From Eutreptiella sp. 'Long Island Sound 2002' (taxonomy: Eukaryota; Protista; Euglenida): a stretch of 64,000 bases of DNA. The stretch lies in the NCBI GenBank assembly GCA_964036045.1, contig OZ038378.1:183210001-183274000 (forward strand). The letters run 5' to 3'. The translations under genes were made by a program, and so were the position numbers. Below the pieces are notes generated by a model, which was not told the DNA's origin, ran no database searches, and worked only from the letters and a program-made list of their open reading frames with translations. Of the stretch, positions 16,593 through 47,743 are shown piece by piece. Each line of letters begins with the position of its first letter. Within the stretch, counting starts at the first letter, position 1.

Positions 16593-16865
16593 CTAGACAT
16601 CGAAATGCCGGTCGGACACCGGGCTGCTGCCGGGCTCCATGCCCTCCGATGATATGCAGCAGCCGAACATCTTCGGCTTCCGCTTCCGCACCTTCACGGA
16701 CGTGACGTTGACCCGGTCGTAGCGGCCGTTGGAGACGAGCTGCGGCACGGGGACCAGTCGCGGGGTCTTGAGCTGCTCCATCACGACGCAGACCCGCGTC
16801 CGGCGCCGCAGCTCGTCATAAGAGAGCGGGAGCGCCAGGTCAAGCCCACGGCAGTGCGTCAAAAC
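16593..16865 (-). CDS. Receptor-ART exon 12: C-terminal tail
   Basis: Acceptor cttccag|GTTTTG after a pyrimidine tract. [51 protein letters not shown], with TAG at 16595-16593. Confidence 0.82.
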   Translation of the reverse strand, partial: VLTHCRGLDLALPLSYDELRRRTRVCVVMEQLKTPRLVPVPQLVSNGRYDRVNVTSVKVRKRKPKMFGCCISSEGMEPGSSPVSDRHFDV

Positions 16866-46400: not shown

Positions 46401-47743
46401 TACGTGATCCCGTCCAGACCGAGCCACTGCCCGCCAAAGCCCTGCGGCACCGTCACGTGGCCGTCGGCGGTGATGGTGACCTCGACGGGGGCACCGCCGG
46501 GGGCGAACACCCGGAGGTCCCGCGGGGGCCGGTGGCCGTGCGGGAGGGTGACGATGCGCGTCGTGTCCTGCGAGATCAGGGCGCGGCCATAGAGCGACAC
46601 GCGGGACGAAACGTTGGTGGACTGCAGGGGCCAGTCGGGGTCCTGCGCGGCGCTCGACTCGAGCTGGCGGCCGACCCCGACAGCGAAGGCGATGCCGCTG
46701 AGGCTGAGCCACGCCGCGGCCGCGGGGCCGGAGGTCCACCGGACGGCCCCATCGGGCGCGACGGTCACCTCCGCCGGGCCGGTGTCGGCGCGGACGGTGA
46801 ACACGCGGCGCGCCGGCGGGCGGCGGCCGCGCGGGAGGACGGCGACGGGGGTGACGCGGGTCGCGTTGGCCACGGCCCCTGCGAGAGCAACGGTGGGGCC
46901 GTCGGGGCCGTCTGGGCCCCAGAGGGCGGCGCGAGGGTACTCCGGTGCCGGGGCCGTCCAGGGGGGCTCCAGCGGCAGGGGCTCGGCCGCCGCCAGAGGG
47001 AACCGGACGGTGTTCAGGAACACCCAACGCGCCCCTCCCCCGGGGCCCTGCCACGTCAGGCGGCCGTCCGGCTCCACGTCGACGCGGGCTGGGCCCGCGC
47101 TGGTTGCGACGGCGAAGACCAGCCGCCCCTGGGGGCGGTGCGGCGCGGGCAGGACCGCAATGCGGGGGCCGGCGCCCGCGGCGGCCCTCACGGACCCCAT
47201 GAGCGTGACGGTGTGCCCCTCCCGCCGGGAGCTCGGCCGCAACTGGAACCGAGGCTGGACCGGAGTGGCGCTGGGCTCCCACCCTGGCCCCAACGGCAGC
47301 GCCAGCTGCGCGGCACCACCGCCGTCGGTGTCGGTGTGGGTGTCGAGGTACTGCGTGGGGTAGGGCAGGACCTCGACCTTGGCCTGGAAGTAGGGCTCGC
47401 GGGGCCACTGCACCTCCACGGCGGGGGGGCGGGGCTGTGCCTCCGGGTGCTGCTCCACCACCACGGCCTCCCCACTCCAGAATCGGAGGGAGAGATTCCC
47501 GGAGCGCCCGTGCAGGTCGTACCGCCAGTTGCAGGCCCTTTGGTGGCGGCACCTCTCGTGCAGGAGGATGGCGCTCGAAGGGGTGTCGCCGCAGCTGTCG
47601 TCGAGGCTTTTGTTATAGCGGTACGCCGTGTCGCCGCCGAGCATTTGGATCTTGACGCGGCGGTGGTAGAGACCGGCCCACGGGATGCGGATGTAAACGA
47701 CCACTGCGGCGCAGAGCCAGAACAAGTACAACACATAGTTCAT
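16593..47743 (-). CDS. Spliced gene (12 exons, ~2105 aa): putative multi-pass membrane receptor with ectodomain repeats, PAN-like domain, ankyrin repeats and C-terminal R-S-E ADP-ribosyltransferase
   Basis: Exons 47743-46274, 45029-44391, 44125-43781, 42170-41555, 36303-35365, 32817-32562, 31900-31633, 30562-30508, 29230-28526, 19996-19476, 19034-18804, 16865-16593. All introns are GT...AG; cumulative phases (0,0,0,1,1,2,0,1,1,0,0) agree at every junction; total 6318 nt is divisible by 3 with no internal stop. Exon 8 and the exon 2/3 boundaries are the least certain, and extra symmetric exons in the large introns cannot be excluded. Confidence 0.78.
17560..18093 (+). mobile_element. Probable retroelement fragment carrying one arm of the 202-bp inverted repeat
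   Basis: Coding-like remnant ([12 protein letters not shown].., reminiscent of LINE RT 'PK.K..RPI'), continuous with the repeat arm at 17886-18087. Assignment is weak. Confidence 0.35.
18183..18590 (+). repeat. Dispersed ~400-bp repeat, copy of 13223-13650, inside intron 11
   Basis: Colinear, high identity. Confidence 0.9.
18804..19034 (-). CDS. Receptor-ART exon 11: ART catalytic core (STT and E-x-E)
   Basis: 77 codons: [61 protein letters not shown]. Acceptor atccag|GCG; donor GAG|GTACCC. Symmetric, phase 0-0. Confidence 0.93.
19476..19996 (-). CDS. Receptor-ART exon 10: N-terminal half of ART domain (YT..lN.aLR helix and catalytic Arg in VFRG)
   Basis: ORF 19440..19985: [18 protein letters not shown]...FWRPFIYYV...RWVFRGL. 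Acceptor gcatag|GGCTG (phase 1, fits exon 9); donor CAG|GTCTCA. Confidence 0.9.
20120..20240 (+). repeat. (CA)n microsatellite
   Basis: Direct observation. Confidence 0.98.
20506..23040 (-). mobile_element. 5'-truncated non-LTR retrotransposon (zf-RVT plus C-terminal extension) in intron 9
   Basis: ORF 22249..23028 has [21 protein letters not shown] and [11 protein letters not shown]; it frameshifts into ORF 20969..22390. The 3' end reads ..CCTCGTTAATAGTACA with no poly(A). Confidence 0.85.
23060..24290 (-). mobile_element. Second 3'-end copy of the same LINE family
   Basis: 23061-23215 is ~95% identical by eye to 20507-20660, with the same terminus. The 5' limit is approximate. Confidence 0.7.
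24480..25560 (-). mobile_element. Retroelement ORF1/N-terminal-like coding remnant
   Basis: Pro/Ala-rich frameshifted ORFs 24881..25495 ([12 protein letters not shown]..) and 24528..25097 (..[10 protein letters not shown]). No splice sites fitting the host gene; lies among TE fragments. Confidence 0.45.
25385..25530 (+). repeat. Long poly-G/G-run tract
   Basis: More than 25 consecutive G plus further G-runs. Confidence 0.95.
25570..26590. mobile_element. Non-autonomous element with 13-bp subterminal inverted repeats (ACCGAGCTGGTGG), flanked by TTAGGG-like repeats; copy 1
   Basis: ACCGAGCTGGTGG at 25601-25613 and its reverse complement at 26490-26502. The interior is homologous to the reverse complement of 39290-40850. 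No long ORF. Confidence 0.75.
26750..27575 (-). mobile_element. Third LINE 3' end (27184-27575) joined to a putative element 5' region/ORF1 start (26750-27170)
   Basis: TACTATTAACGAGGG at 27185 with diverged downstream similarity to 20507; ORF 26750..27019 [18 protein letters not shown]... Confidence 0.5.
28365..28500 (+). repeat. (GA)n microsatellite just inside the 5' end of intron 9
   Basis: Direct observation. Confidence 0.98.
28526..29230 (-). CDS. Receptor-ART exon 9: linker and degenerate ankyrin repeats
   Basis: ORF 28299..29276: [39 protein letters not shown]. Acceptor atcgcag|TCCGC; donor AACG|GTGCGT followed by a (TC)n tract. Confidence 0.85.
30508..30562 (-). CDS. Receptor-ART exon 8 (inferred 55-nt micro-exon, [18 protein letters not shown])
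   Basis: Inferred to bridge phase 0 (exon 7 donor) to phase 1 (exon 9 acceptor). Bounded by tccag| and |GTACAG, with GC-rich codon-like content. The pyrimidine tract is weak. Confidence 0.5.
31633..31900 (-). CDS. Receptor-ART exon 7: ankyrin repeat plus basic helix
   Basis: [35 protein letters not shown] within ORF 31576..32169. Acceptor gttcag|GTGC (phase 2); donor GAG|GTGTGC (phase 0). Confidence 0.88.
32562..32817 (-). CDS. Receptor-ART exon 6: ankyrin repeats
   Basis: ORF 32558..32833 with [11 protein letters not shown] and GKTPLFYTL. Acceptor tctcag|GCTTC (phase 1); donor CTCAG|GTAAAG (phase 2). Confidence 0.9.
33062..33275. mobile_element. MITE-like element with imperfect terminal inverted repeats
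   Basis: GGGGGGGATA..GGGATAATTTCGTGGGGAAATTTCG versus ..CGAAATTTTCCCCGGCGAAATAATCCCCACACGAAATTATCCCCCCC. Confidence 0.55.
35365..36303 (-). CDS. Receptor-ART exon 5: last TM segments and ankyrin repeats 1-5
   Basis: ORF 34763..36418. Acceptor after a (TCCC)n tract, ccgcag|GGTCC. Ankyrin motifs [54 protein letters not shown]. Donor GCAG|GTGTCG. Confidence 0.92.
36315..36390 (+). repeat. (GGGA)n microsatellite forming the polypyrimidine tract of the exon 5 acceptor
   Basis: Direct observation; (TCCC)n on the coding strand. Confidence 0.95.
37520..37770 (+). repeat. Degenerate (GGCGGTTGG/GGTGGTTGG)n low-complexity repeat
   Basis: Visible short-period G-rich repeat. Confidence 0.85.
37917..38307. 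mobile_element. MITE-like element, ~74-bp inverted arms plus an internal direct copy
   Basis: Arms at 37917-37990 and 38233-38307 (GACATGGAGGTATGGAGGTACCAAGGGGAGTGTCATAGG / reverse complement); third copy at ~38052-38105. Confidence 0.75.
39280..40850. mobile_element. Copy 2 (inverted) of the subterminal-inverted-repeat element, with internal ~165-bp tandem repeats
   Basis: ACCGAGCTGGTGG at 39292-39304 and CCACCAGCTCGAT at 40814-40826, followed by GACCCTAACCCTGACCCTAA. Internal repeat units start near 39548, 39711 and 39878. Confidence 0.75.
41555..42170 (-). CDS. Receptor-ART exon 4: TM segments and loop
   Basis: ORF 41262..42254. Acceptor (tccc)n..ctctcag|CTCTGC. Hydrophobic [18 protein letters not shown] and [20 protein letters not shown]. 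Donor ATAG|GTGCCT, phase 1. Confidence 0.86.
43781..44125 (-). CDS. Receptor-ART exon 3: three to four TM segments
   Basis: ORF 43724..44218, strongly hydrophobic ([62 protein letters not shown]). Acceptor ACAAG|GGA (alternative CAG| at 44116, same phase). Donor CCG|GTCCGC. Confidence 0.8.
44391..45029 (-). CDS. Receptor-ART exon 2: PAN/apple-like Cys domain, linker and first two TM segments
   Basis: ORF 44319..45056. Acceptor GACCAG|GGATCC in phase 0. [20 protein letters not shown] motif, then [18 protein letters not shown] and [18 protein letters not shown]. The donor position (GGT|GTGTCC) was chosen to fit phase and is less certain. Confidence 0.82.
45498..45570 (+). mobile_element. tRNA-like SINE head (degenerate A and B boxes) in intron 1
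   Basis: GGTCCCGTAGCTCAGCTG (A-box-like) and GGGTCGAATCCC (B-box-like); no clean cloverleaf. Confidence 0.4.
46274..47743 (-). CDS. Receptor-ART exon 1 (490 aa): N-terminal signal/anchor plus 3 tandem beta-rich repeats
   Basis: ORF 46244..47743. ATG is preceded by a pyrimidine tract and CAG|CC. Hydrophobic start [18 protein letters not shown]. Repeats [30 protein letters not shown] / [30 protein letters not shown] / [30 protein letters not shown]. Donor CAG|GTCCTT, phase 0. Confidence 0.88.

Follow-up and report, generated by a model that had tools for sequence, protein, structure and literature searches.

A candidate receptor-enzyme with phage-head-like repeats, 11 predicted transmembrane helices and an arginine-type ADP-ribosyltransferase domain in Eutreptiella

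The window analysed here is a 64,000-nucleotide (nt) stretch of repeat-rich eukaryotic DNA from Eutreptiella sp. 'Long Island Sound 2002' (contig OZ038378.1, positions 183,210,001 to 183,274,000). Within it, a single minus-strand gene, running from an ATG at 47743 to a TAG at 16593, encodes in 11 exons and 5,979 nt a protein of 1,992 amino acids (aa) that combines three repeats resembling phage receptor-binding protein (RBP) heads, a PAN-like domain, a block of 11 predicted transmembrane (TM) helices, ankyrin repeats and a C-terminal ADP-ribosyltransferase (ART) domain. We interpret this protein as a receptor whose surface ligand is likely a glycan and whose enzyme domain ADP-ribosylates arginines in the cytosol, a reading to which we assign a probability of about 0.55. 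With binding heads predicted outside and ankyrins and an arginine-type ART predicted inside, an enzyme-linked receptor is the most economical interpretation, and the protein is best filed as a variant of that plan. The family to which it belongs is real, expressed and conserved, and is apparently undescribed.

One gene, one polypeptide

Joined in order, the 11 coding blocks display GT-AG boundaries at all introns, matching phase, and a stop codon at the terminus only. GC content at third codon positions (GC3) is 0.77-0.97 across the exons, and exon codon scores range from +27 to +172, with a codon model trained on the same exons and hence not independent of them. The exons and two of the introns are:

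Exon 1, 46274..47743, minus strand: aa 1-490; signal or anchor at the N-terminus (aa 3-21), then a Cys-rich N-domain, the three RBP-head-like repeats and the PAN-like domain's first half
Exon 2, 44393..44975, minus strand: aa 491-684; remainder of the PAN/apple-like domain (Cys 452-559), stalk, TM1-2
Exon 3, 43781..44070, minus strand: aa 685-781; TM3-5
Exon 4, 41555..42170, minus strand: aa 782-986; TM6-8, with a basic loop 7-8 carrying a conserved PDD..AG..L.W.W motif
Exon 5, 35365..36303, minus strand: aa 987-1299; TM9-11, ankyrin repeats starting at aa 1102
Exon 6, 32562..32817, minus strand: aa 1300-1384; ankyrin repeats
Exon 7, 31633..31900, minus strand: aa 1385-1474; ankyrin repeat and basic linker
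Exon 8, 28526..29057, minus strand: aa 1475-1651; helical domain, one degenerate ankyrin-like repeat
Exon 9, 19476..19996, minus strand: aa 1652-1825; N-terminal helices of the ART, motif Arg1817 (19502-19500)
Exon 10, 18804..19034, minus strand: aa 1826-1902; ART core with Ser1844 (18980-18978), Glu1884 (18860-18858) and catalytic-position Glu1886 (18854-18852)
Exon 11, 16593..16865, minus strand: aa 1903-1992 and stop; conserved extension past the ART core, then a variable tail
Intron 4, 41554-36304, minus strand: 5,251 nt (5.25 kb)
Intron 8, 19997..28525, minus strand: 8.53 kb; repeats and likely retroelement remains at ~20972-23085

An initial annotation of this DNA had described one minus-strand, phase-consistent GT-AG gene with 5.2-kb and 8.5-kb introns, and we recovered the same start and stop, no internal stop, and both long introns (41554-36304 and 28525-19997, the latter numbered 9 in that annotation and 8 here). 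Its count of 12 exons and 6,318 nt was not reproduced. The sole open, phase-preserving 339-nt stretch bounded by AG and GT between exons 5 and 8 (31278-30940) scores -24 and falls where the window protein already exceeds its homologue P0001 in length, so that the homologue gives no room for it. Phase-preserving scans of all 10 introns yielded no exon-like candidate other than a retroelement-like frame in intron 8.

Homologues support a single polypeptide. A search with exon 9 retrieved one protein, P0001 (1,866 aa), which aligns colinearly with the 11 exons and is identical at 728 of 1,803 aligned positions (~40%). A HMMER search with exon 1 against 1.84 billion representatives returned 550 matches at E 0.001, and among the 150 that were listed, both P0001 and P0034 (1,804 aa), each ~40% identical to the window protein, hold the repeats, the Cys module, the TM block, the ankyrins and the ART in one chain. 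The single-protein architecture, previously proposed from the joined exons, is thus carried in one database protein by two homologues. Eight of the 10 junctions align gap-free in at least one full-length homologue, with short gaps near aa 987 and aa 1652. Identity is highest in the ART (54-62%), intermediate in the helical domain (33-40%) and lowest in the TM block (26-32%).

Among the listed matches, P0003, P0127 (with its cluster mate P0151), P0025, P0083 and P0102 are N-terminal parts of the same family, and P0083, whose contig equals that of P0034 in length, supplies the N-terminus missing from P0034, which is probably one long exon. These family members are ENA proteins, most of them on contigs of 0.5-1.1 Mb and P0001 on a 47.5 kb contig, and their unrelated heads and tails suggest plain open reading frame calls running into introns. 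Fragments at least 71% identical to window exon 1 are found on further Mb-size contigs (the P0096 cluster); the corresponding assemblies may come from the same or a close species, and, if so, about five divergent copies of the family (36-49%) may coexist in one genome. The family tree is essentially without resolution. A word-based search of exon 1 against longer proteins gave no match, and we consider it insensitive because P0001, P0003 and P0034 were later recovered by HMMER. With P0001 aa 1400-1830 as the query, only P0001 itself was returned, and scans of viral and metagenome contigs with P0001 found no relative. The family alignment matched eight metagenome and eight viral loci, each in the repeat only, and had no match in GTDB genomes.

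RNA data provide a partial and separate view of the same gene. A sequencing-run search gave eight runs, comprising two estuary metatranscriptomes, X1 and X2 (word share 0.07), three runs of one organism with nearly all or half of the words, and three small runs with none; contigs of X5, X1, X2 and X4 were aligned to 28510-48200, and those of X1, X2, X6 and X7 to 16420-36400. Contigs from X1 and X2 placed on exons have 0 mismatches. An X1 contig omits the 441 nt of 19035-19475 and an X2 contig the 661 nt of 31901-32561, joining exon 9 to exon 10 and exon 6 to exon 7, respectively, exactly as modelled. Letters 1-80 of a 251-nt X1 contig (depth 2.4) lie at 36226-36305 and letters 78-251 at 41554-41727; we take the two placements to be one contig because length, depth and strand are equal, in which case intron 4 would be spliced at the modelled sites. 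Another X1 contig, of 309 nt, ends at 46273, the exon 1 donor, with the rest of the contig unlisted, while a 215-nt X1 contig lies inside exon 2 with 0 mismatches. Three of the 10 junctions are therefore joined in RNA as modelled; one further junction is hinted and six are uncovered, including that of the 8.5-kb intron preceding the ART, which was not bridged. Exons 8 and 11 and the 8.5-kb intron have no RNA coverage, which is no evidence of absence, and X6 and X7 gave no contig matching 16420-36400. Each RNA joint is one low-depth contig, and the X1 and X2 studies may be one campaign.

Several minor features of the gene were also recorded. Intron 8 contains a retroelement-like stretch with a zf-RVT match (E 0.006, under cutoff), as well as a minus-strand frame at 24884-25249 with exon-like codon use (score 28.6) and no Pfam match, probably part of a mobile element. 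Exon 9 carries a 26-aa in-frame insertion (~19700-19780, minus strand), outside the RNA coverage and missing from both homologues, which may form a loop at the protein surface or represent a short intron that the gene model overlooks. The introns on either side of exon 10 each contain one copy of a 221-nt inverted duplication with 98.6% identity (17873-18093 and 19113-19333); base pairing between the copies over the catalytic exon could influence its splicing. Finally, pieces of the gene appear to be carried around the genome: short exon 1 pieces are found on other large contigs (P0096 and P0153-P0155, on ENA contigs of 1.3-1.8 Mb), and X4 DNA depth is raised over 46249-46905 (121, vs ~35-55 at several other exon bins). 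A 204-nt copy of the exon 5 3' end with its donor site, 91% identical, lies at 51072-51275 (minus strand), 3.3 kb upstream of the start codon. With 14 non-synonymous vs 3 synonymous codon changes in 68, this last copy is likely a dead fragment.

An arginine-type ART predicted to face the cytosol

Downstream of the TM block, the chain continues with nine ankyrin-like motifs, a helical domain and the ART. The ankyrin array and ART domain previously noted were both recovered, exons 5-8 encoding ankyrins and exon 10 matching ART/ADPrib_exo_Tox. The R-S-E triad, which in ARTC enzymes lies on strands beta1, beta2 and beta5, corresponds to Arg1817, Ser1844 and Glu1886 and is aligned in P0001 and P0034, and the ExE motif (Glu1884-x-Glu1886) reads EEE, EGE and EEE in the three full-length proteins. 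Conservation of R-S-ExE in all three upholds the earlier designation "arginine-type", as ExE marks arginine specificity among ARTs (PMC3102197), and by its sequence the C-terminal domain fits the definition of an arginine-specific ARTC. The Pfam ART model PF01129 scores 29.5 bits in P0001 and 37.7 bits in P0034 (cutoff 22.3). No PARP Pfam domain was matched, the motif being R-S-E instead of H-Y-E. The solved sequences nearest to exon 10 are bacterial effector ARTs, with HopU1 the best (E 9e-4), and NCBIfam and PADLOC returned only ankyrin or short ART-loop matches, those of NCBIfam far under cutoffs.

Averaged over the family, hydrophobicity in the membrane block (aa ~620-1097) rises to 11 peaks, located from aa 626 to aa 1096. 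The initial annotation had counted about 12 TM segments: 11 helices past the ectodomain, plus the N-terminal signal or anchor, account for this number, and the hydrophobic stretch that comes last (aa 1102-1128) belongs to the ankyrin array, being a repeat that aligns with ankyrin-1. In the four homologues, Lys and Arg residues number 4-7 in loop 1-2 and 6-10 in loop 7-8, vs 1 and 5 in the window protein. Because of these basic loops, the odd helix count and the conserved ectodomain sequons and cysteines, we predict that the N-terminus is outside and the C-terminus inside, i.e. that the ectodomain is extracellular and the ankyrins and ART cytosolic, which agrees with the topology first suggested for this protein.

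On sequence criteria, the 11-helix core matches no known family. Pfam scans of the window protein and its homologues gave no match to channel or transporter domains, nor to GPCRs or adhesion GPCRs, for which the TM model is of low confidence. A TRP-type plan is not what we find, since the ankyrins come after 11 helices, there is no Ion_trans match, and a TIGR00870 trp match is confined to the ankyrin stretch. The protein likewise departs from the ecto-ART plan of a single GPI-anchored or secreted, outward-facing domain, being an 11-pass protein with its ART C-terminal after ankyrins.

A predicted ectodomain with phage-head-like repeats

The N-terminus is hydrophobic at aa 3-21, consistent with a signal or anchor, and is followed by a Cys-rich domain (aa 22-148) for which our searches found no match. 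The region aa 150-451 then matches PHROG 3639, a minor tail protein (E 1e-15), in three stretches, and these repeats match the C-termini of phage tail proteins in sequence:

Repeat 1, 46994..47296, minus strand: RBP-head-like, aa 150-250; phrog_3639 minor tail protein
Repeat 2, 46679..46978, minus strand: RBP-head-like, aa 256-355; P0003 equivalent vs 6r5w_A, Z 13.3, rmsd 1.8 A, 95 aa
Repeat 3, 46391..46648, minus strand: RBP-head-like, aa 366-451; P0003 equivalent vs the bIL170 head 2fsd, Z 9.7

An AlphaFold2 model of P0003 (alignment of nine rows, mean pLDDT 55, repeats ~63-91) was used for structural comparison. In VIA comparisons, the P0003 repeat model aligns over 95 aa with the Listeria phage PSA gp15 head (Z 13.3, rmsd 1.8 A) and also with a Pseudomonas phage tail needle (Z 12.1). 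Foldseek against the PDB gives probabilities of 1.00 to PSA gp15 and 0.99 to the p2 RBP, and against viral models E-values down to 7e-17. On the basis of these models, the three repeats share the beta-barrel fold of phage RBP heads. PF08931 has no match in the window family; 12 of 20 other repeat-bearing proteins scanned match it, three at or above the cutoff, and an Atlas search with the repeats as query gave clusters without a name at 0.93. Among 155 repeat-bearing proteins, three copies are found in 90, six in 17 and nine in 4, vs four in 1, five in 6 and seven or eight in none, although a three-repeat query favours triplets in such a count. This prevalence of threes suggests that the heads fold as a single-chain pseudo-trimer. 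Phage RBP heads are homotrimers that bind cell-wall saccharide receptors (PMC7291167), and their fold suits the glycan or surface sensor envisaged at the outset.

The repeat is not unique to the window family: many other large proteins contain it, among them several that also carry lectin domains; it accompanies tectonin, ricin-B, AbfB and weak CBM6 domains, and among 157 proteins a TM block is found in 6 and an ART in 3. Separately, giant proteins of 2,000-6,500 aa (P0002, P0004, P0006; L001:1132-7029) hold up to ~20 copies, and other proteins combine the repeat with lectin, protease, kringle or collagen domains, so that it looks like a widespread surface module without a good Pfam model.

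The PAN assignment stands in part. Cys 452, 492, 496, 501, 514 and 559 are invariant in all six family rows, and this six-Cys pattern, a CxxxC helix followed by strands, is what we take to define PAN/apple domains. The low-confidence model of aa 452-559 shows strand-helix-strand-strand. Pfam and PDB scans gave no PAN match, and Atlas PAN clusters at 0.83-0.85 are a lead only; we regard this region as likely a PAN/apple domain below the Pfam threshold. Overall, ten ectodomain cysteines are invariant and a sequon at aa 293 is kept in all six rows, while a PDB profile search with the ectodomain and TM rows gave no match at E 10.

Mechanism and alternative explanations

In the receptor reading, the N-terminal segment would direct the chain into the secretory path, leaving aa ~22-615 outside or in a lumen, where the three heads, as a single-chain pseudo-trimer, would grip a surface glycan of a bacterium, virus or other cell with help from the PAN-like domain. 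Ligand binding or clustering, relayed by the helical bundle, would lift inhibition of the ART. The ankyrins might select the substrate, as in tankyrase, and could be either substrate-recruiting or inhibitory toward the ART. The enzyme would then move ADP-ribose from cytosolic NAD+, which is abundant in the cell interior (PMC3102197), to arginine, switching a signalling or defence response. More tentatively, we speculate that this is the founding family of receptor ADP-ribosyltransferases, in which phage-type heads sense bacterial or viral glycans, a new 11-helix fold spans the membrane and a cytosolic arginine ART provides the output, the divergent copies forming a repertoire for immunity or prey choice.

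A number of observations weigh against the receptor reading. Its binding, activity, localisation and regulation are predictions only. Seven of the 10 junctions, including the one attaching the ART, are not joined in RNA, and one X2 contig lies entirely within intron 3 (42686-42836), which implies that the libraries also contain unspliced RNA or DNA. Window exon 10 alone is under the Pfam cutoffs (20.3 vs 22.3 and 21.6 vs 23.4), because introns split the ART domain, and the ART model has a pLDDT of 39, so that its fold is assigned from the sequence. In the ectodomain, Foldseek matches to the PDB miss E 0.001 (best RBP match 1.7e-3), and PAN identity is unproven. For topology, basic residues follow the N-terminal hydrophobic segment and the positive-inside rule could favour the opposite orientation, and a sequon at aa 1168 (three of four rows) falls in the TPLH motif of the predicted cytosolic ankyrins. 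Finally, the TM model (pLDDT ~40-75) resembles only generic four-helix bundles, and so signal transmission is not favoured over transport or anchoring.

The best of the alternatives, which we consider unlikely, is a chanzyme whose 11-helix core conducts or scrambles a solute while the ART modifies the protein itself or its neighbours and the ectodomain serves as a tether or gate instead of feeding an enzymatic signal. Eleven helices far exceed the needs of a receptor-enzyme, TRP and plant K+ channels are examples of multi-pass proteins that carry ankyrin arrays in the cytosol, and the TM1-4 model aligns with channel and cytochrome helical bundles (Z 9-10). However, these matches are generic and outscored by de novo four-helix bundles (Z 13), Pfam offers no channel or transporter match, the TIGR00870 match covers ankyrins only, and conservation is lowest in the TM block (26-32%).

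Somewhat less probable is a constitutive, positioned enzyme, with the ectodomain an adhesin on prey, symbiont or the cell's own coat that places an ungated ART at a membrane patch such as a phagocytic cup or contact site. The RBP-head triplet is indeed found in many apparently secreted or surface proteins, with a TM block in just 6 of 157 and an ART in 3 of 157, and PARP16 sets a precedent, as a cytosolic ART that is anchored in the membrane and has no ligand domain (PMC10789625). Yet an always-on cytosolic arginine ART would be costly, and the conserved helical domain between ankyrins and ART (33-40%) seems suited to inhibition.

We give still lower odds to a weapon or suicide switch, in which contact with a microbe or virus unleashes the ART, either killing its own cell through abortive defence and NAD+ loss or being passed to the target in the manner of polymorphic toxins. 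Among solved sequences, exon 10 comes closest to effector ARTs of bacteria (best E 9e-4), R-S-E ART toxin domains stand beside tail-fibre repeats in the polymorphic toxins of bacteria and have been catalogued in some eukaryotes (PMC3482391), and several divergent copies (36-49%) may share one genome, as in conflict systems. Against this, scans revealed no protease domain and neither flank has an immunity-like gene, and the ART is slow-evolving and not swapped between copies, unlike polymorphic toxin tips. That ART exons 9-11 form a separate transcript here, or that the gene is a decaying copy, is very improbable: the 8.5-kb intron is unbridged in RNA and exon 9 has an internal Met and the 26-aa insertion missing from both homologues, but phase agrees across this intron, both full-length homologues are continuous there in one chain, no stops or frameshifts occur, and the catalytic motif is intact.

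Comparison with known systems

Enzyme-linked receptors and chanzymes include receptor kinases, among them the PAN/lectin S-domain kinases, receptor guanylyl cyclases, and TRPM2/6/7. They place an outside binding domain and an inside catalytic domain in one chain, as predicted here; the window protein differs in its predicted output, mono-ADP-ribosylation, and in an 11-helix core without a known family.

With ARTC enzymes (the ecto-ARTs ARTC1/2/5; HopU1, XopAI, Vis; PF01129/PF03496), the window protein has R-S-ExE in common. In vertebrates, ARTCs are either secreted or attached by a GPI anchor, and are oriented toward the lumen or the cell exterior (PMC10789625 and PMC9027952); bacterial ones are delivered toxins, whereas the window ART ends an 11-pass host membrane protein on its predicted cytosolic side. 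Tankyrase also has ankyrins upstream of a C-terminal ART, and its ankyrins recruit substrates (PMC10789625), but it is soluble, belongs to the H-Y-E clade, makes poly-ADP-ribose and has no ectodomain or TM block. PARP16/ARTD15 is likewise membrane-anchored with a cytoplasmic catalytic domain (PMC10789625), but through one tail-anchor helix, in the ARTD clade, and without extracellular binding domains or ankyrins. The siphophage RBP heads (Listeria PSA gp15, lactococcal p2, bIL170; PF08931) share the beta-barrel fold of the window repeats; they are homotrimeric on the virion, whereas the window protein has three tandem copies in one eukaryotic membrane protein, compared by fold and sequence.

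Earlier work gives this comparison its context. Toxin-like R-S-E ART domains are on record for some eukaryotes (PMC3482391), eukaryotic ARTC enzymes are described as outward-facing ecto-enzymes (PMC10789625, PMC9027952), arginine ARTs were apparently lacking in unicellular eukaryotes according to a 2010 review (PMC3102197), and intracellular arginine ADP-ribosylation is abundant in mammalian cells without a known intracellular writer (PMC9027952). The earlier impression that no described protein has this domain order agrees with our search of the open-access literature, in the text available to it, which found none, subscription papers and InterPro architectures lying outside that search. If the proposed gating is true, the protein would represent a new receptor class. 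The predicted cytosolic R-S-ExE domain would extend the outputs of enzyme-linked receptors to ADP-ribosylation, a phage host-recognition fold would be shown serving as a eukaryotic ectodomain, and the protein brings with it a membrane domain of 11 helices that matches no known family.

Surrounding DNA

Rfam gave 0 matches over 12000-52000. Upstream of the gene and on the same strand, a further gene at 51404-60102 (minus strand) is marked by exon-like frames at 59011-60102, 55842-56396 and 51407-51958, with a weak match to glycosyltransferase family 17 (E 0.027, under cutoff). On the other side, decayed retroelement-like frames occupy 4566-12073 (minus strand), with matches to RVT_1 (7166-7594, E 2e-8) and RNase H (11486-12073, E 4e-23). 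Repeats include a 166-bp tandem repeat of very high genomic depth at 39519-39945, a long degenerate tandem array at 52424-54310, and an internal TTAGGG-like tract at 26521-26573.

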